Shown here in pieces: positions 1,719 through 23,917 of a stretch of DNA of 25,789 nt (position 1 is its first letter; every line of letters starts with the position of its first letter). This DNA comes from a virus. Its lineage: Duplodnaviria > Caudoviricetes. The notes below the pieces were generated by a model that saw nothing but the letters and a program-made list of their open reading frames with translations, searched no databases and was not told the DNA's origin. The DNA is taken from the IMG/VR virus record IMGVR_UViG_3300048893_000243, positions 1 through 25,789 of that record. One strand, written 5' to 3'. The position numbers were made by a program, and so were the translations under genes.

Positions 1719-3332
1719 CTAGGGGCGGATGCCGCCCTGAGCCACCGGCACTTCGGTCAGCGGTTCCGCGTCGGCCGCGGGCACGTGGGTTCGCAGGACC
1801 GAGCGGGACTCAGCGGCGAGCGGCGCCGTGACCTTCTTGGCGCGCGGCGCCTTTCGCACTCGCTTGGGCAGGCCGCGGACGCGCAGCTGCTCGAGCGCGC
1901 GGCGGCCGCCGCGGACCTTGCTCACGTCGACCTCGCCGGCGACGCCGGCGACGTGCGCTGTCCATGTGTACTGCCAGAGCGTGAAGACGTGCCACGGGCT
2001 CGGGATCAGTGGGCGATCAGCGCCGGGGTGCGCGATCCAGAGCAGGTAGTGGTTGAGGAGCGAGCATCCCCGCAGGTATTCGTCGACGTAGCTCGGGTAG
2101 GTGTAGATGACTGGCTTCTCGCCGAGCACCTTCTTGACCGTGTGGACGAATTCGCCGACTTCGTGACACCAGGCGGAGTCGGAAAGCGAGGTCTTCTCCT
2201 CGACGTCCACGAAGGGCATCAGGAAGCCCTTGCCGTAACCAGCGTGGCCGATGGCGTTGGCGAAGAAAGCGGCCTCGGCCTTGCCCGAGCTCCCGCCCGG
2301 CGAGAGCCAGTGGTAGACGCCGGGCACCAGGTGCGCCGCGCCGATCGCGGCGAGCTGCCGTCGACCGAAGCAGGGGTTGAGGTAGGTCGTGCCCTCGGTT
2401 GCCTTCGTGATCGCGAAGCTGGCACCGTCGTGGCGTACAGCCTTGAAGTTGATCGCGGGATGGCCCGTCGCGGGGCAGCCGTTGTTGGAGGAGATGTCGA
2501 TGCCCCAGGCGGGCTTGTTGGGCTTGCGCGCCGGGTGCTTGTGGGGCTTCGTCGGCTTCTTGGCCGGCGCCCCCTTGGTCAGACCGGGGACCTTCGCCGG
2601 GGTTGTCTTGACGGGCTTGGAGATCGGTCGGCGCAGGCGCTTCCAGACGCGAGGCGAGACGATGCCGTTGACGGGGATCCGCTGGGCCTTCTGGAAGCGA
2701 CGGACGGCGATCGCCGTCGAGCGGCCGAACTCGCCGTCGACGTCGACGGACTTGTCGCCGTGGCCGCGCAGGAGCTTTTGGACCTTGCGGACATAGACGT
2801 TCTGGCCGGGCCCGCCGGAGCCTCTCTGCAGGCGGGGACTGTGGAGGTTGGTACCCGGGTTGGGGCGGTGAAAGACGGCAGCGTTGTACTTGAGGTGCCA
2901 CCACTCCGACTGCGCGTCGGACCAGCACTTGCACCAGCCGAAGCGCTGGCCGTGCTCGTCGACGTAGCCGCGGACGAACTGCGGGACGTCGATCGCCAGG
3001 CCGAGGCCGTGGTTGGAGGTGCCGGGGTAAGCGGCGAGGTTGCCGCGGCCCGATTGATAGAGCTGCCAGTAGTAGAGCTGGCGCGAGTAGGGACGGTAGG
3101 CCGAGTCGCAGCCGCTGTCGGGAAGACGTTCGCCGGCGGCGAGCGCCATCGAGTTCCAAGCCGCGGCCGCCTTGTCTTCGAGCTGGCCCTGTAGGGGTGT
3201 GCACTTGACGCCGGTGGCGATCGGCGACATCGCGCTCGAGGGCGCGTCGCCGTTCGTCCAGGCGCTTGCTCCCTGGACGCCGGCGCCGAGCAACATCAGC
3301 GCCGCCACGAGGGCGAGCAGGGTCCGCCGCAT
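1719..3332 (-). CDS. Endolysin: signal peptide + M15 (VanY-like) peptidase + PG_binding_1 + GH25 muramidase
   Basis: Signal MRRTLLALVAALMLL...ASA. M15 motifs SAYR, PGTSNHGLGLAID, EWWH. PG-binding VDGEFGRSTAIAVRRFQ. GH25 motifs GIDIS, KATEG, GVYH, DVE, WQY. RBS AAAGGAGG. Confidence 0.92.
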   Translation of the reverse strand: MRRTLLALVAALMLLGAGVQGASAWTNGDAPSSAMSPIATGVKCTPLQGQLEDKAAAAWNSMALAAGERLPDSGCDSAYRPYSRQLYYWQLYQSGRGNLAAYPGTSNHGLGLAIDVPQFVRGYVDEHGQRFGWCKCWSDAQSEWWHLKYNAAVFHRPNPGTNLHSPRLQRGSGGPGQNVYVRKVQKLLRGHGDKSVDVDGEFGRSTAIAVRRFQKAQRIPVNGIVSPRVWKRLRRPISKPVKTTPAKVPGLTKGAPAKKPTKPHKHPARKPNKPAWGIDISSNNGCPATGHPAINFKAVRHDGASFAITKATEGTTYLNPCFGRRQLAAIGAAHLVPGVYHWLSPGGSSGKAEAAFFANAIGHAGYGKGFLMPFVDVEEKTSLSDSAWCHEVGEFVHTVKKVLGEKPVIYTYPSYVDEYLRGCSLLNHYLLWIAHPGADRPLIPSPWHVFTLWQYTWTAHVAGVAGEVDVSKVRGGRRALEQLRVRGLPKRVRKAPRAKKVTAPLAAESRSVLRTHVPAADAEPLTEVPVAQGGIRP

Positions 3333-3565: not shown

Positions 3566-4363
3566 TCAGTGCGTCAACGAGTAGGAGGCGTTGTCGAAGG
3601 AGGGGATTTGGCCGGCATTGAATGCGACGGCACACTTCACTTTGCCGTCTGGTTCGACCACGACAGGCATCAGACCCGCAGCTGTCGGATTGTTGCCGTC
3701 GATCGCGACGAGGATCTTCTTGTATTTCGGACAGGCCGGGGCTGGCACGGTGAACAGGACCGAGCCGCCGACCACGCCTCCCGCGCCGATCGTGATCAGA
3801 CCCGATAGGTGGGCAAGCTGGCCGTCCTGACCCACCGCGATTTTGGGCGCATAGGGCGCACCGAAGGGTGTGACATTGGCGCCGAGTTCGACGTCTTCCC
3901 ATGCGACAGCCGAGCCACCGCTGCCGGGTGGCCCTTCGGGTCCGGCTGGACCTTCGGGGCCCTGCGGCCCCTGAATCCCGGCGTCGCCTTTGGCGCCCTG
4001 TTTGCCTTCAGGTCCCTCCGGTCCGACGTCGCCCTGGTCGCCCTTTTCGCCTTTCGGTCCCTGCGCCCCCATTTCACCTTTGCCGTCCGGGCCCTGGGGA
4101 CCTTCGGGCCCCGCCGGACCTTGCAGCCCTTCGGCACCTTTCGGGCCCTGTATGCCCTGGTCGCCCTGGTCTCCCTTCGGTCCCTGTTTCCCTTCCGGTC
4201 CCTGCGGCCCGGCCGGGCCTGGAGGCCCTTCGGCGCTCCCGTTTTTGCCGGCCGGTCCTTGCGGTCCCTGTTTTCCTTGAGGACCCTGGGGGCCGGGAGC
4301 CGAGACCTCGACCACCTCACGTGCGGGATCCCGAACGACAACGACGGTGTCTCCGTCGCTCAT
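3566..4363 (-). CDS. Collagen-like tail fibre / minor virion protein (265 aa)
   Basis: ATGA-coupled start at 4363 ([10 protein letters not shown]), about 40 G-X-Y triplets, and a C-terminal beta-rich head (AHLSGLI...[10 protein letters not shown]). Confidence 0.85.
3920..4292 (-). repeat. Gly-X-Y collagen coding repeat with two interruptions
   Basis: Blocks of about 7, 16 and 18 triplets ([12 protein letters not shown]...). Confidence 0.9.
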
Positions 4364-16856: not shown

Positions 16857-17646
16857 CCCTTGTCACCTCCCTTCGGTTGCAGGCCGAAGAAGCGCGCGAT
16901 CGCGTGGGGGTCTTTCTCGACCTCCTTCTTCGGTTTCTCCCCTTCCGGGTCGGGCCGGTCGGGGTGTGTGTAGATGCGCTGGGGCATCGGCAATTTCTTG
17001 GGCCACTTGCCCCGGCTGCCGAGCGCAAAGATCGCCGAGTAGCTCAGCGCGCCCCAGTGGTTGATCGCCTCGATCGTCAAGGCATTCCACTCGTCGGTTT
17101 TCGTCCACCCAAGCTGGTCCTCAGCCCAGGTGGCCGCGTCATCGGGAAGGCCGTCGACCAGCACCCAAAGTCTGCGGGCGCTGGTCGGTTGGGCCGTGTG
17201 GGTGCCGAATACCTCGGCACGCAGGTCGAGGGTGTAGAAGCGTTGGAAGTCCGCCTCAACCAAGTCCCAGCGAGAAGCTAGGAGTCGGATGAGGCCGAGG
17301 ATTCCCCCTCGCCGATCCCGAACTCCTTCCTGATCTCTTTGAGCAGCTCTTCGACCGCGTTGCCGCCGTCTTTCGCCGAGAGTCCCATCGCAGCGAACTG
17401 CTCAAGCTGTTCGGCGCCGACGTAGGCCTCGGCGATGTCGAGCAGGGCAAAGTTGAGCGCGCCCTCGTTTTCTTCCTCCGCCGCAGCGAGCAGCTTGCGG
17501 TTGGCCAGCATCACCGAGAAGGGGACCTCGTCGGGCAGCGTGAACTTGATTCCGCGCACCTCGACCGACCGCGGCTCGCCGCTGCCCTCGCTACGGGCAG
17601 CGGCGGTCGAGTCTTTTTTGGCGCGCGGTTTGCGAGCGGCGCTCAC
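16853..17646 (-). CDS. Tail assembly chaperone, -1 frameshift-extended form (about 264 aa)
   Basis: The -1 frame is open from the slippery site (GILGLIRLLASRWDLVEADFQRFY...) to the TGA overlapping the tape measure ATG. Confidence 0.85.
17278..17646 (-). CDS. Tail assembly chaperone (short form, 122 aa)
   Basis: Lies between tail tube and tape measure, GTGA-coupled, ends GEGESSASSDS. Confidence 0.85.
   Translation of the reverse strand: MSAARKPRAKKDSTAAARSEGSGEPRSVEVRGIKFTLPDEVPFSVMLANRKLLAAAEEENEGALNFALLDIAEAYVGAEQLEQFAAMGLSAKDGGNAVEELLKEIRKEFGIGEGESSASSDS
17302..17308 (-). promoter_or_regulatory. Programmed -1 ribosomal frameshift site G GGG GAA
   Basis: GGGGGAA in the correct phase, just before the last 7 sense codons. 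The same heptamer is used by mycobacteriophage chaperone genes. Confidence 0.85.
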
Positions 17647-18212
17647 GAGCCGGTCGGCTCGAAGGCGACGTCGTCCGTGACGAACGAGACCCCGATCGAG
17701 TCGTTGCTCTCGCCGGCGAGCGCCTTGTAGCCGATGTTGAGCACCGACAGGTCGGAGCGTTTGAGCGGCACTTTGACGCCGTCGACCACGTTGCCGTTCT
17801 CGAAGCCGAGCTGGTAGTGGCGGTCGCCGTCGACCCAGCGCAGGACGAGCGAGCGCTCCTCCAGGGCGTCGTCGCCGGTCGGGAATTCGAACTTGTAGAT
17901 CCCCGATTTGACCTCGACCACTTCGCCGCCGCCGAAGGCGAAGACGAAGTTGTCGGCGTTGAACTGCTCGAGCGTGAAATTCGCGCCGAGGTCTTCTTTT
18001 TCGACTTCGCGCCGGACCGCGTTGCGGCGCTGGGCGGCGAAATACTCTTTGATCGTCAGGTCGCGGCTGAACTCCGCGCCGTCCTCGGTGATGAAGCCCA
18101 GTTCGACGAACCCTTTGAGTTCGGCGACCGGATCGTCGGGGATGGTCGCAGCTGCAGCGCCGACGAAAATGTCAGCCCCCGGGGCAACGACCAGCTCTTT
18201 GTGGTCCTGCAT
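17643..18212 (-). CDS. Major tail (tube) protein
   Basis: Motifs LGFITEDG, FTLEQ, ERSLVLRWVDG as in actinophage tail tubes. RBS AGGAGG. Ends EPTGS. Confidence 0.88.
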   Translation of the reverse strand: MQDHKELVVAPGADIFVGAAAATIPDDPVAELKGFVELGFITEDGAEFSRDLTIKEYFAAQRRNAVRREVEKEDLGANFTLEQFNADNFVFAFGGGEVVEVKSGIYKFEFPTGDDALEERSLVLRWVDGDRHYQLGFENGNVVDGVKVPLKRSDLSVLNIGYKALAGESNDSIGVSFVTDDVAFEPTGS

Positions 18213-18272
18213 GGTGGGTCCTCCTGCCCCGGTTGGGGCGGTTGTGTTGTGTTCGGAACGGACAGGCGCGGC

Positions 18273-18572
18273 TTACTTGCCGTGCTCGTCGAGACGAAGA
18301 CCTGCGGCCCTTACAGAGCGCCTGAGCGGTGAGTAGGGCGGGTTCTTGGCGGAGCCGTACTCGTCGAGATGGGCGCCGTGGTCGGTGTTGACCACGCGCA
18401 CCTCGTCGCCGTCGACCTCGACAACGACCGAGCCCGAGCGGCTGCTCGGCATGATCGAGTGCTTCGCCCCTTCGGCTCGCCGGCGAACCCCGTTGGCAGC
18501 TTTGATCAGGGTGCCCTTCATCTGGGCCTGCAGCTGCAACTCGAAGTCCGTGTTGGGCTGAAAGCGAGTCAC
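18273..18572 (-). CDS. HK97 gp10-like neck/tail completion protein (99 aa)
   Basis: GTGA-coupled start at 18572. Contains the motif AHLDEYGSAKNPPYSPLRRS. Confidence 0.75.
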   Translation of the reverse strand: MTRFQPNTDFELQLQAQMKGTLIKAANGVRRRAEGAKHSIMPSSRSGSVVVEVDGDEVRVVNTDHGAHLDEYGSAKNPPYSPLRRSVRAAGLRLDEHGK

Positions 18573-19003
18573 GACCCCTCCTCGACCGCGTGCGCCCAAA
18601 CCGTCGCTGTAAGCGCATAGCGCTCCATGGGAGGGTCGAAGTCGCCGTCGGGGATCCTCGGGCAGCCGTCGATGCGCACCCCGCTCACGACGGCACCGGC
18701 GTGAGCGGCTTCGGGCATCGCCACCATTGCGGCGCGCACCAGGCGCGTGAGAAGCGAGGATTCGCCGCGCCGGCCTTGCGCTGCTTTGCCGGCGAAGCAG
18801 TCGAGCTGCACGTAGAACTCCACCAGGTGGTCAGTGGTCGACCTTCCGCTACTTTGGGCGTCGAGTTGGAAGACGCGGACCCAGGGTCTATCGGTCGAGC
18901 TCGGTGTCCTGCCAACCACGCGATCGCCAACGATGTCCGCGATCTCCGGCTCGTCACGCAGGTGGTCGCCGATGAGCGCCTCGATGTCGGGTATCGGGGT
19001 CAT
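18569..19003 (-). CDS. Tail terminator protein
   Basis: IPDIEALI...VGDRV...RPWVRV...VQLDCFA...RYALTATV pattern. Ends VEEGS. Confidence 0.8.
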   Translation of the reverse strand: MTPIPDIEALIGDHLRDEPEIADIVGDRVVGRTPSSTDRPWVRVFQLDAQSSGRSTTDHLVEFYVQLDCFAGKAAQGRRGESSLLTRLVRAAMVAMPEAAHAGAVVSGVRIDGCPRIPDGDFDPPMERYALTATVWAHAVEEGS

Positions 19004-19362
19004 GAGCCCTCCGGCAAATCTGCCGGTGCGGCGGTCCGGCGCACCACTGCCTCGACGTGTGACTGCTCATGCGTGCGCGGGTTCCGCGCCGGCCAGGGGT
19101 CGCCCTCGACCTCGTAGGCGCAACCATCAACCGTCACCGTGTCCCCCGAGCTAATCTCCGTGCCGGCGGGGAGGAAGAGATTCCAGCGGGTATCGCTCAC
19201 GACGCCCTCGGACTCCTCGCGATAGCCAGACTGGCCTTGGAGCTCGCACACCGTCGCCACCTCGACGTCGTCGGGGATCTCGTCGCCGTAGGCATCGTGA
19301 TCGTCGCCCTCCAGGTGGCGGGTGACGGTGCACGGCCGGTTGATCAGCTCGTCGATGCTCAT
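19000..19362 (-). CDS. Head closure / stopper protein (120 aa)
   Basis: ATG 19362 after AAGGAG. Pattern DAYGD...LFLPAGTEI...DTVTVDG..YEVEGDP...HVEA. Ends LPEGS. Confidence 0.85.
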   Translation of the reverse strand: MSIDELINRPCTVTRHLEGDDHDAYGDEIPDDVEVATVCELQGQSGYREESEGVVSDTRWNLFLPAGTEISSGDTVTVDGCAYEVEGDPWPARNPRTHEQSHVEAVVRRTAAPADLPEGS

Positions 19363-19364
19363 GC

Positions 19365-20345
19365 TCACCACTCCTTGTGGAGGTCGGCCAGGACGGCCGC
19401 GGCGCGTTTGGCCGCCTTGCCATCACAGGCGAGGTAGACGTCGGAGACGATGTCCCGCCGGCGCCGCGCGATCTCGGGCGGGTCGGCGATCGCTTCGTCA
19501 ATTGCCGCCGGCAGTCCCCCGGGCGACCAGGCCTGCGGGCCGACGTCGGCGTGTGACCAGAAACGAAGCCCGTGCTCGACGTCGCGGCGATACCAAGGGG
19601 CATTGAGCACCACCACGGGCCGGTCGAGCGAAGCCCACTCGTACATCGTCGAGCTGTTGTCGATGCAGTAGACGTCGGCGCGCGCGATGACCTCGGCGAA
19701 GTCCTCGACCACCTCGATCCCGGCACGCTTGTAGTGGCGGCTGATTTGGCGAAGCAACCGGGGATGGCCGTGGCCGATCATCTCGTAGCGCTCGGCGAGG
19801 GCGGGCAGCGCCGAGCGGTAGTGACTGTGGGCACCGCGCGTCTCCTTGCATACCCGGCACTGCCAGTGGAAGCTGATCGCGACCACGGGACGATCGCCGC
19901 GACGGCGGAAGGGCGCCCGATGATGCACGTCGAGCTTCGGGCAGCCGACCGGATAGGCGGGGATCGTTGGGTGCGCCCGGCGGTGACAGTCGGCCGCCAT
20001 CTGCCCGGGCACCAGTGTCGCCACGACGCCGGCGCGATCACAAGCCCCGATGTAGGAGCCGGAGTTCACGCCGACGTAAGACTGGCCCGCACCGTGCTCG
20101 GAGTAGACGACCAGGCGCGAGAGGCCGCGGGCGAGCTTCAGGTCGCGATAGCTGGCCACAAGGGTGAGTGGGCCCGACTCCGGCGCCTCCTCGACGGCGA
20201 CGGCCTCGATTGAGGCCGCGGACAGCTGCTCGAGCATCTCGGGGTGGACGTAGAAGGTGCCGCGCAGTCGCCTCGGCAGCTCGTGCCAGGTTGGGATCAG
20301 GTGGTCGGCGAAGTGGCTCTCGCGAGCCAGGAAGTCAATAGCCAC
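19365..20345 (-). CDS. GT-B transferase, TagF/TagB (CDP-glycerol glycerophosphotransferase)-like
   Basis: EHG, VGCPKLD, HPR and ADVYCIDNSSTMYE...LDRPVV parallel the TagF motifs WHG, GYPRND, HP and DYSS in order. Confidence 0.72.
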   Translation of the reverse strand: MAIDFLARESHFADHLIPTWHELPRRLRGTFYVHPEMLEQLSAASIEAVAVEEAPESGPLTLVASYRDLKLARGLSRLVVYSEHGAGQSYVGVNSGSYIGACDRAGVVATLVPGQMAADCHRRAHPTIPAYPVGCPKLDVHHRAPFRRRGDRPVVAISFHWQCRVCKETRGAHSHYRSALPALAERYEMIGHGHPRLLRQISRHYKRAGIEVVEDFAEVIARADVYCIDNSSTMYEWASLDRPVVVLNAPWYRRDVEHGLRFWSHADVGPQAWSPGGLPAAIDEAIADPPEIARRRRDIVSDVYLACDGKAAKRAAAVLADLHKEW

Positions 20346-21006
20346 GACCCATGCGCTTCTCGCCGATGTGCGTTACCCAGGGCGTGCCGTCGCCCCAGAG
20401 GCCGAAGCGCACATCGGGGTCCTCGCAGAGCCGCCGACTGAAGTGCCACTCGTGGCTGTGGCCGATCGGGCGCTCGAGCTCGCAGAGCTCCCGTCGGTAG
20501 AGGCAGGGGTTGAGCGTGAACCACATGCGGTGCTCGAGCCACTTGAGCTCGCCCTCGCTGACCTGCGTGTACTCGTCGGGATCCCGCTCGATAATCCCAC
20601 CGGCGCGGACCTCGCCGGGAAACCAGGGCTGGCGAAGCAGCGCCATCTGGGCGAGGTGGGGATGCTCTTCGAGCACCTCGCGCAGCTGCTCGAGGTCGAC
20701 CGGCCGGTTGAAGAGGAAGTCGTCCTCGAGGTGGAAGACCCAGGGGTGATTTCGGTACTCGCTGCCGGCGAGGTGTTTCCACATGCGCGCGAGCGCCTCG
20801 CCCTGGCCAACGCGCTCGCGACCGTAGGCGACGGTGAAGCCCTGCCGCTGGTAGGTCTCACGCAGCCAGCGCTGGTAGTCGCGGTCTCCTGAGTCATCGA
20901 AGATCAGGTGCGGCCCATCGAGACCGTGCAGCTGCTCGCGCGCTGAGGCGATCGTCCGCTCGAGGCACTCGCGGCGCCCATCCGTCGTGACCGCGAGGAG
21001 GATCAA
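20335..21006 (-). CDS. GT-A fold glycosyltransferase (223 aa)
   Basis: TTGA-coupled start at 21006 (MILLAVTTDGR...). Motifs IFDD, FHLEDDF, TLNPCLYR, HIG. Confidence 0.8.
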   Translation of the reverse strand: MILLAVTTDGRRECLERTIASAREQLHGLDGPHLIFDDSGDRDYQRWLRETYQRQGFTVAYGRERVGQGEALARMWKHLAGSEYRNHPWVFHLEDDFLFNRPVDLEQLREVLEEHPHLAQMALLRQPWFPGEVRAGGIIERDPDEYTQVSEGELKWLEHRMWFTLNPCLYRRELCELERPIGHSHEWHFSRRLCEDPDVRFGLWGDGTPWVTHIGEKRMGRGY

Positions 21007-21668
21007 CGCAGGGCCTCGAGCAGTTCGCGCATCTCCTCCGCGCCCCGCGCCTCCTTGTAGCGACCGGCGCGCTCGCAGTTGGCGATGTACTGAGGGCTCT
21101 GCGTGTCCTTCTCCGCCGAGCGCGGATGCCAAAGGTGGTGAACCGGCCCGGGGATCCGCGCGACGCCGCTCAGCGCGCGGCAGGCCGCGAAGAAGGCAGC
21201 GTCCTCATAGCCCCAGCCGACAAAGTCCTCGTCGAACCCGCCGACCTCCTCCCAGAGGACGCGGCCGACACAAAGGCAGGATGACTTGGTCTCGTTCTTG
21301 ACCCAGCGCACCGGCGCCTCCGCTGGATCGAGGTCGCCGGCGAGGACCTCGCGGGTTGCGTTTTTGCTGAGCGAGCGGAAGTGGTCGTGTGGCAGCACCA
21401 GCTCGCCGCCTCGCGCAAACTCGATCCCCTGCTGCAGCTGGCTGGCCGGGATCAGCGTGTCGGCATCGAGCACCACGGCGAGCTTCCAATCGCCGGCGTC
21501 GGCCGCAGCCCGGTTGATCGCGGCCGAGCGGTTCATCGGCGCCGGGCCCTCGTCGAGACCTTCGAAGATCGGCAGATCTGCCGATGCCTCGAGCTGGGCC
21601 CGGGTGAAGTCCCAGAGACGATCGCGCCAGCGCTCCGGCCGACGAGGCACCAGGACTACAACGTCCAC
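21003..21668 (-). CDS. GT2 / GT7-C-like glycosyltransferase
   Basis: VLVP, NRSAAINRA, LDADT (DxD), VGGFDEDFVGWGYED, HLWHP. Confidence 0.9.
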   Translation of the reverse strand: MDVVVLVPRRPERWRDRLWDFTRAQLEASADLPIFEGLDEGPAPMNRSAAINRAAADAGDWKLAVVLDADTLIPASQLQQGIEFARGGELVLPHDHFRSLSKNATREVLAGDLDPAEAPVRWVKNETKSSCLCVGRVLWEEVGGFDEDFVGWGYEDAAFFAACRALSGVARIPGPVHHLWHPRSAEKDTQSPQYIANCERAGRYKEARGAEEMRELLEALR

Positions 21669-22324
21669 TGCGCCCTCCGCCGCTCGAAGAGCGCCTTATC
21701 GCGATCCCACCCCTGGCCGTGTCCCTGCCGATCCGTCTCGTCGGCCTCTCGGGATCCCCAGTCGGGGTGAAGGTGCTCGATCACCGAGCCGCGCTCGAAG
21801 ACCGCGACGCCGCGGTGGAGAGCGAGCTGCCAAAGCTCCGTCTCCACAAAGTTGTGGTGGTAGCCCTCATGGAAGCAGACACCCGGCTCGCCGTATGCGG
21901 CGCCCGGATCCTCGATGTAGGAGCGCTGAACGATCGGCATCGTCGCGTGCTGCCCCCTGGCCGTCGCCGGCGTCAGATCGAGCGTGCCGACGACGTCGAC
22001 ACCTTCCGCGAAGTGCGGCAGCGCCGCCTCGAGCCAGCCGCTGTGAAAGACCACGTCGTCGGCGGTCGGCAGGACCAGGTCCTCGTCGGTGGCCCTGACC
22101 CCGGCGTTGGTCTTCTCCGGGTAGGTGCCGTTGCTGACGATCGAGAAGAAGTCGCCGGCGGGAGGCATCGCGGCGATCGCCTCCTGGGTGGCGGCGTCGC
22201 CGGCGTCGATGACGAAGCACACCCGGTAGCGCGGCCGGGTGGTCTGGCGGAGATTCGCCATCAGGCCCGCGAGGACCTGCGGCCGTCCCAGCGTGGGGAT
22301 GAGGATCGCGATGTCGGCGCTCAT
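21656..22324 (-). CDS. GT2 family glycosyltransferase
   Basis: ILIPTLGR, FVID, NAG, ADDVVFHSGW, YHHNFVETE, IEHLHP. Confidence 0.85.
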   Translation of the reverse strand: MSADIAILIPTLGRPQVLAGLMANLRQTTRPRYRVCFVIDAGDAATQEAIAAMPPAGDFFSIVSNGTYPEKTNAGVRATDEDLVLPTADDVVFHSGWLEAALPHFAEGVDVVGTLDLTPATARGQHATMPIVQRSYIEDPGAAYGEPGVCFHEGYHHNFVETELWQLALHRGVAVFERGSVIEHLHPDWGSREADETDRQGHGQGWDRDKALFERRRAQWTL

Positions 22325-22491
22325 TTGCCTGCCTGCGAAGTGGTTGTGATCCGGCCGGGATCGGTGGTGATCACGTCTGGTTCCTGGTCGCCTTCCGGCT
22401 CAGGACGCGACTGCTGCAGGTGGTTGAAGGTGACCTTGCCGTCGTCGCTCTCGACGTCTTGGCGGATCCCCTCTGGCTTCGGGTCGCCCAT
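22321..22491 (-). CDS. Small acidic, probably disordered protein (56 aa)
   Basis: MGDPKPEGIRQDVESDDGKVTFNHLQQSRPEPEGDQEPDVITTDPGRITTTSQAGK. TGATG overlap upstream and ATGA overlap downstream. Not in the ORF track. Confidence 0.7.
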   Translation of the reverse strand: MGDPKPEGIRQDVESDDGKVTFNHLQQSRPEPEGDQEPDVITTDPGRITTTSQAGK

Positions 22492-22901
22492 CAGGAACCG
22501 ACCACCGGATCGAGATCGCTAGCGAGTGAGTCAACGCGGGGAGATGCGCTGTTGCTGCCGCGCACCACGCGGCGCACCATCAGCCGCTCCTGCTTGGTGA
22601 GCATCAAGCCTGCGCCTTCGGCCTGGGCCCGGAAGGACTTGCTGTAGCTGTGGGCGCCCAGGCGCTCTTCGAAGCTCGACAGACCCTCCGGGTTCGCCAT
22701 CGCCCTGGCGGTCGCCTCAAGCGTCACTAGGCGGAGGACCTTGGGGACCGGGTCCAACTGCTCTGCCCAAGCGTCGTCCTTGCCAACGGCCTCGGCGACC
22801 ATCGAGGTGGCCAGCTCGAGCAGAAGCTCAGCGGCCTCTTCTTCGGCTGCGGAGAGGCTGCGCGCCAGGCGTTTGGCGACTTCCTCTTTGCTCGCGAACA
22901 C
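22491..22901 (-). CDS. Head-tail adaptor protein
   Basis: FAS.EEV..RL.R...ARAMANPEG...E.LG.HSYS...GLMLTKQE as in actinophage adaptors. Ends VVGS. Confidence 0.85.
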   Translation of the reverse strand: MFASKEEVAKRLARSLSAAEEEAAELLLELATSMVAEAVGKDDAWAEQLDPVPKVLRLVTLEATARAMANPEGLSSFEERLGAHSYSKSFRAQAEGAGLMLTKQERLMVRRVVRGSNSASPRVDSLASDLDPVVGS

Positions 22902-22917
22902 GGCTCACCCCCTTTGC

Positions 22918-22960
22918 AAAAAAGGACAGCCGAGCCGGCCATGCGGCCAGCCCGGCTGTC
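22918..22960 (-). terminator. Intrinsic terminator after the major capsid gene
   Basis: GACAGCCGGGCTGGCC-GCAT-GGCCGGCTCGGCTGTC (16 bp, two G-U) followed by CTTTTTT. Confidence 0.9.
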
Positions 22961-22966
22961 GGTGGA

Positions 22967-23917
22967 TCAGGAGCCCTCGGACTCCAGGACGGCGAAGGGG
23001 TAGCGATCCGCCTCCACCTGGTTCTTGCGGTTGATCGGGTTCGCCACCGCGAAGCCGTAGCGAGCGACCACGCGCATCGCCACCGCGTCCTGCTGCATGA
23101 GGTTCAGGATGACTTTCCCGTCGTCGTCGGAGATGACGCCCTGCTCGAAGATCTTGAACGTCATGTCCTTGCGGACACCGACGATCGACTTCGACCAGTC
23201 ACCCGCGACCAGGTCGACGCCCTGGTCGAGGAACGAGCCGTTGGCGTCGGGGTAGTAGATCGGCTCGCCGTAGAGGGTCGACGGTGTGTCGGCCTGCAGC
23301 GAGGGGTTGAAGAGCAGCCCCCCGTTTTTGTCCCGCAGGCCACGCAGCGACGACTTCAGCCGGGTCCGGCCGGCGAAGCCGTTGACGGCGAAGCCGTCCT
23401 CCTCGACCATCCCCATCACGCCGTCCTCGCCGCCGATGTCGTCCGCGAGGTCGCCGTTGTCGCCCCGAGCCAACGCATTGTCGGCTTTGAGCGCGTCCGG
23501 CACGATCGCGTCGTTGAACGAGTCCGGCGCGTCGGCCCCGAAGAGACACGCTTCGTCGAGCTTGACGCCGATCGCCTCGGTGATCAGGGGCCGGACCTCG
23601 CCCCAGATGTCGAAGTCCGAATCTTCGATCAGGACTTCCGGCACCGGCACGATCACCGCGAGCTCCTCGGCGACCAGCTCCTTGTTTTTCCATTCGGCCT
23701 TGGTGGTCTGCTTGAGCCCCGTGGCCCCGTTGACCCAGTAGGCCACCGGCAGAGCGGACAGGACCGGCTGGCGCTCTTTCTTGGTGCTCATGTTGGCCCG
23801 GCGGCACAGGCTGAACGCCGCCGACTGCGCGGGCAGACCCTTGATGATCTCCCGCACCTCTTTGACCGGGATCAGATCTCCGGCCTCGTTGTCGCTGATG
23901 ATGTCTTTGACACCCAC
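22967..23917 (-). CDS. Major capsid protein (HK97 fold)
   Basis: AYWVNG...AEELAVIVPV...LYGEP...GDWS...NLMQQDAVAMRVVARYGF. Strong RBS. Ends ESEGS. Confidence 0.95.
   Translation of the reverse strand: MGVKDIISDNEAGDLIPVKEVREIIKGLPAQSAAFSLCRRANMSTKKERQPVLSALPVAYWVNGATGLKQTTKAEWKNKELVAEELAVIVPVPEVLIEDSDFDIWGEVRPLITEAIGVKLDEACLFGADAPDSFNDAIVPDALKADNALARGDNGDLADDIGGEDGVMGMVEEDGFAVNGFAGRTRLKSSLRGLRDKNGGLLFNPSLQADTPSTLYGEPIYYPDANGSFLDQGVDLVAGDWSKSIVGVRKDMTFKIFEQGVISDDDGKVILNLMQQDAVAMRVVARYGFAVANPINRKNQVEADRYPFAVLESEGS

Follow-up and report, generated by a model that had tools for sequence, protein, structure and literature searches.

Glycosylation of the virion has so far been established for a few mycobacteriophages. 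In the Che8-type modification the sugars are said to be O-linked to serine. Freeman et al. 2023 (PMC10527164) reportedly described virion O-glycosylation in Che8 (gp108-110), Corndog (gp36-38) and Myrna. Che8, Corndog and Myrna are glycosylated, with gp110 and gp38 described as essential (PMC12363180), the glycans of known glycosylated phages are located on the C-terminal ends of the capsid and tube proteins (PMC12619734), and similar statements on virion glycosylation recur elsewhere (PMC11600133, PMC11256854, PMC12582341, PMC10568470, PMC10877033). Here we analyze the virus record IMGVR_UViG_3300048893_000243, positions 1 to 25,789 (this whole 25.8-kb stretch is called the window), a partial genome whose minus strand carries the late operon of a siphophage. 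A cassette of four glycosyltransferase (GT) genes, GT1 to GT4, lies there between the genes for head-tail adaptor and head closure, and five shell proteins (capsid, adaptor, closure, tail terminator and tail tube) end in Gly-Ser (GS). From the sequences and by analogy with the phages above, we propose, at a probability of roughly 0.78, that a Ser at the very C-terminus, in most cases preceded by Gly or Ala, serves as acceptor in an O-glycosylation of the virion that the phage itself encodes. Capsid and tube are probably modified, and the balance tips slightly toward at least one neck protein being modified as well.

Che8 displays the same ends on the same two proteins: gp6 (capsid) terminates in KTGS and gp11 (tube) in SDGS, the sole GS ends among the 21 structural-region genes examined, and in Corndog the capsid ends in LVGS and the tube in KGDS. 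The window shares with both phages a soluble phage-encoded GT cluster, a Ser-ended capsid and tube, and GT2, a homologue of Che8 gp109 (BLAST 29%, E 3e-14) and of Corndog gp37 (hidden Markov model (HMM) of the GT2 family, E 1e-38). It differs from them in having no gp110/gp38 homologue, in GT1 and a TagF-like GT4 without counterpart among the tested Che8 and Corndog GTs, in the cassette's position, in three tagged neck proteins and in its likely host. The closest GTDB relatives of GT3 (60-65%) sit in Solirubrobacterales genomes, so this order is the likely host group. GT3 also has homologues in cluster C1 mycobacteriophages (33% to Nappy gp241) and in the Gordonia phage Sephiroth; both Nappy (gp241/242/244) and Sephiroth (gp119/121/122) thus resemble the window in carrying GT3 and GT2 homologues but differ from it in also possessing a gp110 homologue, in giving no GT1 match and in placing their GT clusters far from the structural genes. 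Judged from these comparisons, the window system appears to be a variant of a known one, working like the Che8-type virion glycosylation yet without its gp110 feature; what seems new relative to Che8 is that no gp110 homologue was found, that neck proteins are tagged and that a TagF-like enzyme is present. We found no paper on a C-terminal Ser or GS tag, or on this host group, in the open-licence literature; the original Che8 description may mention GS ends. In the Cronobacter phage ENT47670 (L225), two GT genes stand right behind the tail tube gene, the capsid ends in EATS and the tube in EPSS.

The gene caller recognizes 30 genes in the window, six of which end in GS: the five shell proteins, on whose identities Pfam and PHROG agree, and the low-scoring open reading frame (ORF) 624-824. 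Translation bears out what an earlier note, made from the letters alone, had listed: the five ends with their codons, the additional GS-ended ORF, and the different ends of portal, MuF-like protein, scaffold, the gp10-like neck protein Ne1, chaperones, tape measure, tip proteins and the four GTs. At least five GS ends in 30 genes would arise by chance with a probability of 2.5e-6 against the window's own GS dipeptide rate, 3e-4 at the 2% seen in other genes of GT3 loci (33/1630) and 3e-3 at the 3.4% of all genes of GT-less loci (35/1035), figures that leave aside the membership of all five proteins in one functional class. The capsid can be aligned with the solved capsid 8EDU as far as residue 312 of 316, and its tail is therefore a short extension. 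A nucleotide search of the window against annotated phages gave no match.

The link between cassette and ends was surveyed in the surroundings of GT3 homologues (100 loci: 80 of 101 viral and 20 of 20 from GTDB) and of capsid homologues (113 loci: 80 of 84 viral and 33 of 33 from GTDB), most of these records being fragments. Genes were called and clustered, representatives were named, and ends were counted in sets thinned to 70% identity; ORFs truncated at a contig end and GT-less loci with less than 3.5 kb after the capsid were left out of the counts, and loci whose GTs were limited to a GT-B or another type were counted separately. In GT3 loci, capsids end in GS in 22/37 and in Ser in 33/37 cases, spread over seven sequence clusters that include phrog_10, P22-coat-like, SU10, phrog_777, phrog_1650 and phrog_4523 types, and tubes do so in 18/32 and 28/32 cases over five clusters. 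The respective values are 9/25 and 16/25 for terminators, 6/39 and 13/39 for closures, and 5/44 and 11/44 for adaptors. The GT-less loci yield GS at 0/9 capsids, 0/12 tubes, 0/16 terminators, 0/25 closures and 1/13 adaptors (Ser: 3/9, 3/12, 3/16, 5/25 and 2/13), giving Fisher p values, under single-linkage thinning, of 0.009 for capsid, 0.0005 for tube and 0.015 for terminator. Other proteins of the GT3 loci serve as internal controls: GS ends occur in 0/39 scaffolds, 1/31 portals, 0/26 terminases, 0/26 MuF and 0/18 Ne1 proteins, and in none of 223 GT representatives, yet three raw GT12 sequences are GS-ended. The earlier note had held that its reading would fail if GS were equally common without GTs; on capsid and tube it is frequent where the cassette is present and rare where it is absent. 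Whole-record searches of 30 capsid loci on longer contigs recovered GT3 in the record of L003 only, GT-B in L008, L017 and L053, and GT2-family matches in L016 and L071; gp110 turned up in none of them.

The same association recurs around a capsid of a different family. Seventy loci with a P22-coat-like capsid were chosen regardless of GTs, and 14 short GT-less ones (again <3.5 kb after the capsid) were dropped. In the 40 GT-less loci (15 representatives) the capsid ends in GS in 0/15 and in Ser in 5/15 cases, and the tube in GS in 2/12; the 13 GT-bearing loci (three representatives) comprise two GS ends and one ADSV, the latter with a different GT set. A whole-record check of 35 of 38 P22-coat-like loci detected GT3 in the positive control only and, among GT-less loci, one GT2-family match (the record of L264) and one weak GT-B match (that of L256). 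In L088 the same four cassette genes stand in the same place at 56-65% identity beside a capsid of this unrelated family, and capsid, adaptor, closure and tube all end in GS; to judge by its genes, this appears to be the clearest single case of the cassette accompanied by GS ends on an unrelated capsid. Scans of viral contigs with tube proteins gave no control with the window's tube, and another tube gave two contigs already in the set.

Across the 87 tails the Gly codon, the Ser codon and the stop all vary, and because of this a DNA-level repeat as the origin of the ends is rejected, in keeping with the protein-level selection that the earlier note had suggested from the five differing codon pairs of the window. 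No consensus exists at tail positions -3 to -7, the common feature being the end only. The conserved element is the terminal Ser, with Gly preferred and Ala, Thr, Asp (as in the DS of the Corndog tube) and others occurring before it. The claim that a terminal GS is the acceptor signal is partly supported, by the association of GS with the cassette and by the GS ends of the Che8 capsid and tube, and needs correction in that the Ser is conserved and the Gly only preferred. One competing view accepts a glycosylated virion but has the enzymes read folded surface features or internal Ser/Thr, the terminal GS being a favored site and not a portable signal. The variable penultimate residue (G, A, T, P or D), a Thr-ended capsid in L155 and a GT-bearing clade that retains a five-gene cassette without terminal Ser speak for it; the combination of no upstream consensus with a last-place Ser in most capsids and tubes of unrelated families speaks against it, and we consider it unlikely. 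A GT-B enzyme is the sole GT in four loci, whose capsids end in GS, GS, NS and VS, and the tube of L053 ends in ATNS against PATV in its GT-less sister L077. By these ends the GT-B family 4 appears to be a third enzyme type linked to the terminal Ser (single genes of this family just behind capsid or adaptor are listed in Table 1).

Several observations weigh against our proposal. Closure (Fisher p 0.07) and adaptor (p 0.57) do not differ significantly from GT-less loci. Myrna gp98 ends in LAGGS, but its major capsid protein gp99 ends in ILRKA, and in Sephiroth only the tube is tagged (FAAGS, against TSA on the capsid). No window gene has an HMM match to gp110 or gp38 (GT25-like), the window being a partial genome; a gp110 query likewise found 0/5 among close relatives and 0/26 among GT3 virus records, with both controls detected, and a gp110 homologue occurs in one GT3 locus, L209. 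Two tubes from GT-less loci, those of L245 and L254, have a GS end. HK97 and HK022 carry GS on capsid and adaptor gp6 with no gp110-family GT. A GT3 clade with a five-GT cassette has capsids ending in IALA, VVTL or RITA, and in its member L190 no shell gene ends in Ser (L190 and L217 have two tandem tube-family genes). Finally, GT-less loci are confined to few clades; only one independent pair on well-supported branches is available for the phrog_10 capsid, two for the tube and three for the P22-like capsid, and these contrasts, none in the opposite direction, are too few for any to be significant, so that the Fisher p values overstate the association. Recurrence on unrelated families is the stronger argument.

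Some of these points suit the view that shell proteins have inherited GS as a structural cap or a flexible end, unrelated to the GTs, and that the GTs act elsewhere, for example on DNA or host surface polymers: GS is retained without GTs in HK97 and HK022, GT-less clades are few, one GT-bearing clade has no Ser ends, and phage GTs for DNA or serotype are known (PMC12619734). Set against this, the same cassette is accompanied by the same end on capsids and tubes of unrelated families, GT state and GS state change six and seven times, respectively, on one capsid tree, and the enzymes have no membrane segments, are placed among head-neck genes and include a homologue of a Che8 cassette gene. The HK97-like coliphages mEp390 and HK542, which have gp110-family GTs, resemble the window in GS ends on capsid (SSGS), adaptor gp6 and tube and differ in their enzymes and in having GT-less relatives that keep GS on capsid and gp6; the capsids of GT-less HK446 and mEp234, in contrast, end in FSAD, with gp6 still ending in EEGS. 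We regard the structural-cap explanation as quite improbable. The tube of GT-bearing mEp390 (L222) and HK542 (L230) is a GS-ended protein of 156 residues, and that of GT-less HK97 (L226), HK446 and mEp234 has 234 residues with a C-terminal extension (the loci compared include HK022 = L227, L228 and L229), raising the possibility that glycan and extra tube domain may be alternative tube decorations. From the counter-cases (HK97, HK022, the Ser-less clade and Sephiroth) it follows that GS is neither sufficient nor universal; it appears to mark lineages using, or once using, the glycosylation system. As a glycosylation tag it is linked to the cassette, as first suggested, but it is not diagnostic alone.

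The neck proteins raise a separate question. Among the 30 distinct patterns found in the 42 loci that have all five genes, GS on all five shell proteins is seen only in the window, and L088 and L219 reach four, in both cases including adaptor and closure. One could suppose that glycans are confined to capsid and tube, as in Che8 with its untagged neck proteins, and that the window's neck ends arise from ribosome-binding site (RBS) and stop/start overlap constraints plus chance. The window's closure (GAG GGC TCA TGA) and terminator (GAG GGG TCG TGA) do share 4 nt with the start of the following gene and have a GAGG upstream, the terminator of L204, which has the tube placed closest to the window's by the tree, ends in QEGP, and many GT3-locus closures end in VEG or VTG. 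Nevertheless, neck genes of GT3 loci uncoupled from the next gene still end in GS in 10/48 cases, compared with 5/689 for other genes (p 1e-9), the figures for coupled genes are 11/80 and 17/457 (p 0.001), and among coupled genes with a penultimate Gly the last residue is Ser in 11/15 neck genes against 22/120 others (p 3e-5); the coupling gaps come from the gene caller, some being miscalled, the uncoupled cases are mostly terminators, and the GT-less rows are unfiltered for short contigs. Some closures (DLGS, LPGS, EVGS) carry no EG at all, and the adaptor and closure GS of L088 and L219 repeat the window's. We find confinement to capsid and tube rather doubtful. An RBS origin is rejected at the family level on the uncoupled and penultimate-Gly counts; owing to the overlap, the GAGG and the QEGP of L204, the ends of the window's own closure and terminator could owe something to it, where the caution voiced in the earlier note stands. 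The neck tags are real in this family, best for the terminator, but patchy, and to that extent the predicted reach of the modification into the neck survives. Right behind the probable tape measure of seven distinct GT3-locus sequences is a GS-ended gene of 156-170 codons (Table 1), with no PHROG match in the six tested; by position its product may be a distal-tail ring, in which case the tag may reach the baseplate.

The cassette itself can be characterized further. For GT1 the nearest Atlas clusters are mostly viral, and the predicted model of GT3 (model confidence pLDDT 94.9) agrees with viral GT-A folds; among solved structures, searches by sequence returned weak GT-A matches for these two and none for GT4. 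The latter scores 0.98 in Atlas to viral clusters, 37-70% of whose members have PF04464, and itself matches this family above cut-off over residues 182-315 only, scoring under the NCBIfam equivalog cut-offs, with no NCBIfam match and no PDB sequence match. It resembles TagF/TagB (PF04464) acting with a TagD-like cytidylyltransferase in this family match and in that the cassettes of L003, L006 and L024, which include GT4, hold a TagD/RfaE-like nucleotidyltransferase, one that scores under the family cut-offs and has no equivalent in the window; it differs in belonging to virus-dominated clusters, in the NCBIfam scores and in its acceptor, which would be a virion glycan. None of the four GTs has a hydrophobic segment (top 19-residue hydropathy 0.4-1.45, vs 2.3-2.7 in two hydrophobic window proteins). 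A Gtr-type serotype-converting cassette with a membrane flippase and membrane-bound transferase was rejected for want of membrane segments in the GTs and of any Gtr Pfam match, and GT3 as a gp110 orthologue because the similarity is weak (HMM E 3e-5 on an 11-sequence file; hhalign 23%). Extra cassette genes in relatives (Table 1) suggest that the glycan chemistry varies across their cassettes.

We envisage that the soluble enzymes would be made alongside the structural proteins and draw their nucleotide sugars from the host. The initiator, a GT-A enzyme, would recognize a short, exposed tail that closes with a small residue plus Ser and transfer the first sugar onto the Ser hydroxyl; outward-facing C-terminal tails are expected from HK97-fold capsids and siphophage tubes in general. 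The most likely candidate for the initiator, at slightly under even odds, is GT1, because it is present in 95/105 GT3 loci and in L240-243 (GS capsid and two GT1 genes, no GT3 in these fragments) and has no match among the tested GTs of the gp110-bearing phages Che8, Corndog, Nappy and Sephiroth; counting against it, six tested GTs of GX15bay match neither GT1 nor gp110. GT3 is a less likely initiator. GT2 and the remaining GT would lengthen the chain, and GT4 would perhaps add an alditol-phosphate cap, a role proposed because of the nucleotidyltransferase in the three relatives' cassettes. Every subunit with an exposed tail of that ending would be modified, so neck rings could join or leave the target set via one or two codon changes, and the glycan would shield the particle surface. 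In its fullest form the idea is tentative and less likely than not: a portable small residue plus Ser C-terminal signal and a gp110-independent pathway begun by GT1 would place an alditol-phosphate-capped glycan on every outer ring, from the capsid through adaptor, closure and terminator to the tube, with the product of the post-tape-measure gene added in relatives, and would pass from one capsid or tail lineage of actinobacterial phages to others unrelated to it.

Table 1. Features of the window (plain coordinates) and of related loci (L numbers)
Feature	Position	Strand	Evidence and remarks
Major capsid protein, HK97 fold	22967-23917	-	PF05065 E 1e-25, phrog_10 E 2e-47; ends ESEGS (GGC TCC TGA)
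Head-tail adaptor Ad1	22491-22901	-	phrog_137 E 2e-24; ends PVVGS (GGT TCC TGA)
56-residue ORF of unknown role, between adaptor and cassette	22321-22491	-	end not GS; no Pfam/PHROG match
GT1, soluble GT2-like (GT-A) glycosyltransferase	21656-22324	-	PF00535 E 6e-8, phrog_14945
GT2, Che8 gp109 / Corndog gp37 homologue	21003-21668	-	phrog_1721; BLAST and family HMM
GT3, GT-A glycosyltransferase with EDD motif	20335-21006	-	phrog_3047 E 7e-21
GT4, TagF/TagB-like, CDP-glycerol glycerophosphotransferase family	19365-20345	-	PF04464 E 5e-7
Head closure Hc1	19000-19371 (likely start ATG at 19362)	-	phrog_501 E 6e-11; ends LPEGS (GGC TCA TGA)
Tail terminator	18569-19003	-	PF11367 E 8e-11, phrog_123; ends VEEGS (GGG TCG TGA)
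Neck protein Ne1 (gp10-like)	18273-18572	-	phrog_24636 E 1e-4; untagged, ends EHGK
Tail tube protein	17643-18212	-	PF25681 E 2e-20, phrog_117; ends EPTGS (GGC TCG TGA)
Tail protein, 893 residues	5628-8309	-	laminin-G lectin domain at N-terminus
Fibre protein	3566-4363	-	collagen repeats
Endolysin, three domains	1719-3332	-	VanY-like peptidase, peptidoglycan-binding domain, GH25 muramidase
Small ORF, 66 residues	624-824	-	CxxC and later Cys; ends PAGS; coding score 2.1
Post-tape-measure GS genes	L130:15949-16428, L131:19408-19878, L137:17646-18116, L152:9888-10391, L154:14681-15178, L163:16013-16525, L176:15316-15804		
Single GT-B (family 4, phrog_26352) just behind capsid or adaptor	L004:2630-3619, L008, L017, L053, L197		capsids end GS, GS, NS, VS, SS
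Extra cassette genes in relatives	L003:10914-11339, L006:7355-7834, L024:6812-7246, L006:8487-9170, L180:8498-9400, L181:10689-11324		nucleotidyltransferase, pyruvyltransferase, epimerase or methyltransferase
GT-cassette clade, capsids without terminal Ser	L168, L169, L179, L189, L190, L193-L196, L217, L220, L221		

Outside the head-neck region, the ORF 624-824 was rejected as a tagged protein: its coding score is low, no PHROG or other family matches it, and one chance GS end is expected among 25 genes at about 2%. At the position of the 56-residue ORF behind the window's adaptor, L202 and L205 have an ORF of 60 residues. The endolysin, the fibre protein and the lectin-domain tail protein complete the features recorded here.

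If the proposal holds, the terminal-Ser signal would make virion glycosylation predictable from sequence in many uncultured phages, and a pathway without gp110 would represent a second initiating enzyme family. The neck tags would mean a continuous coat, extending beyond capsid and tube; as the likely hosts are environmental actinobacteria, this coat would presumably have a role that is not the evasion of antibodies. Glyco-engineering and phage therapy would also profit from a minimal graftable O-glycosylation tag together with soluble enzymes.

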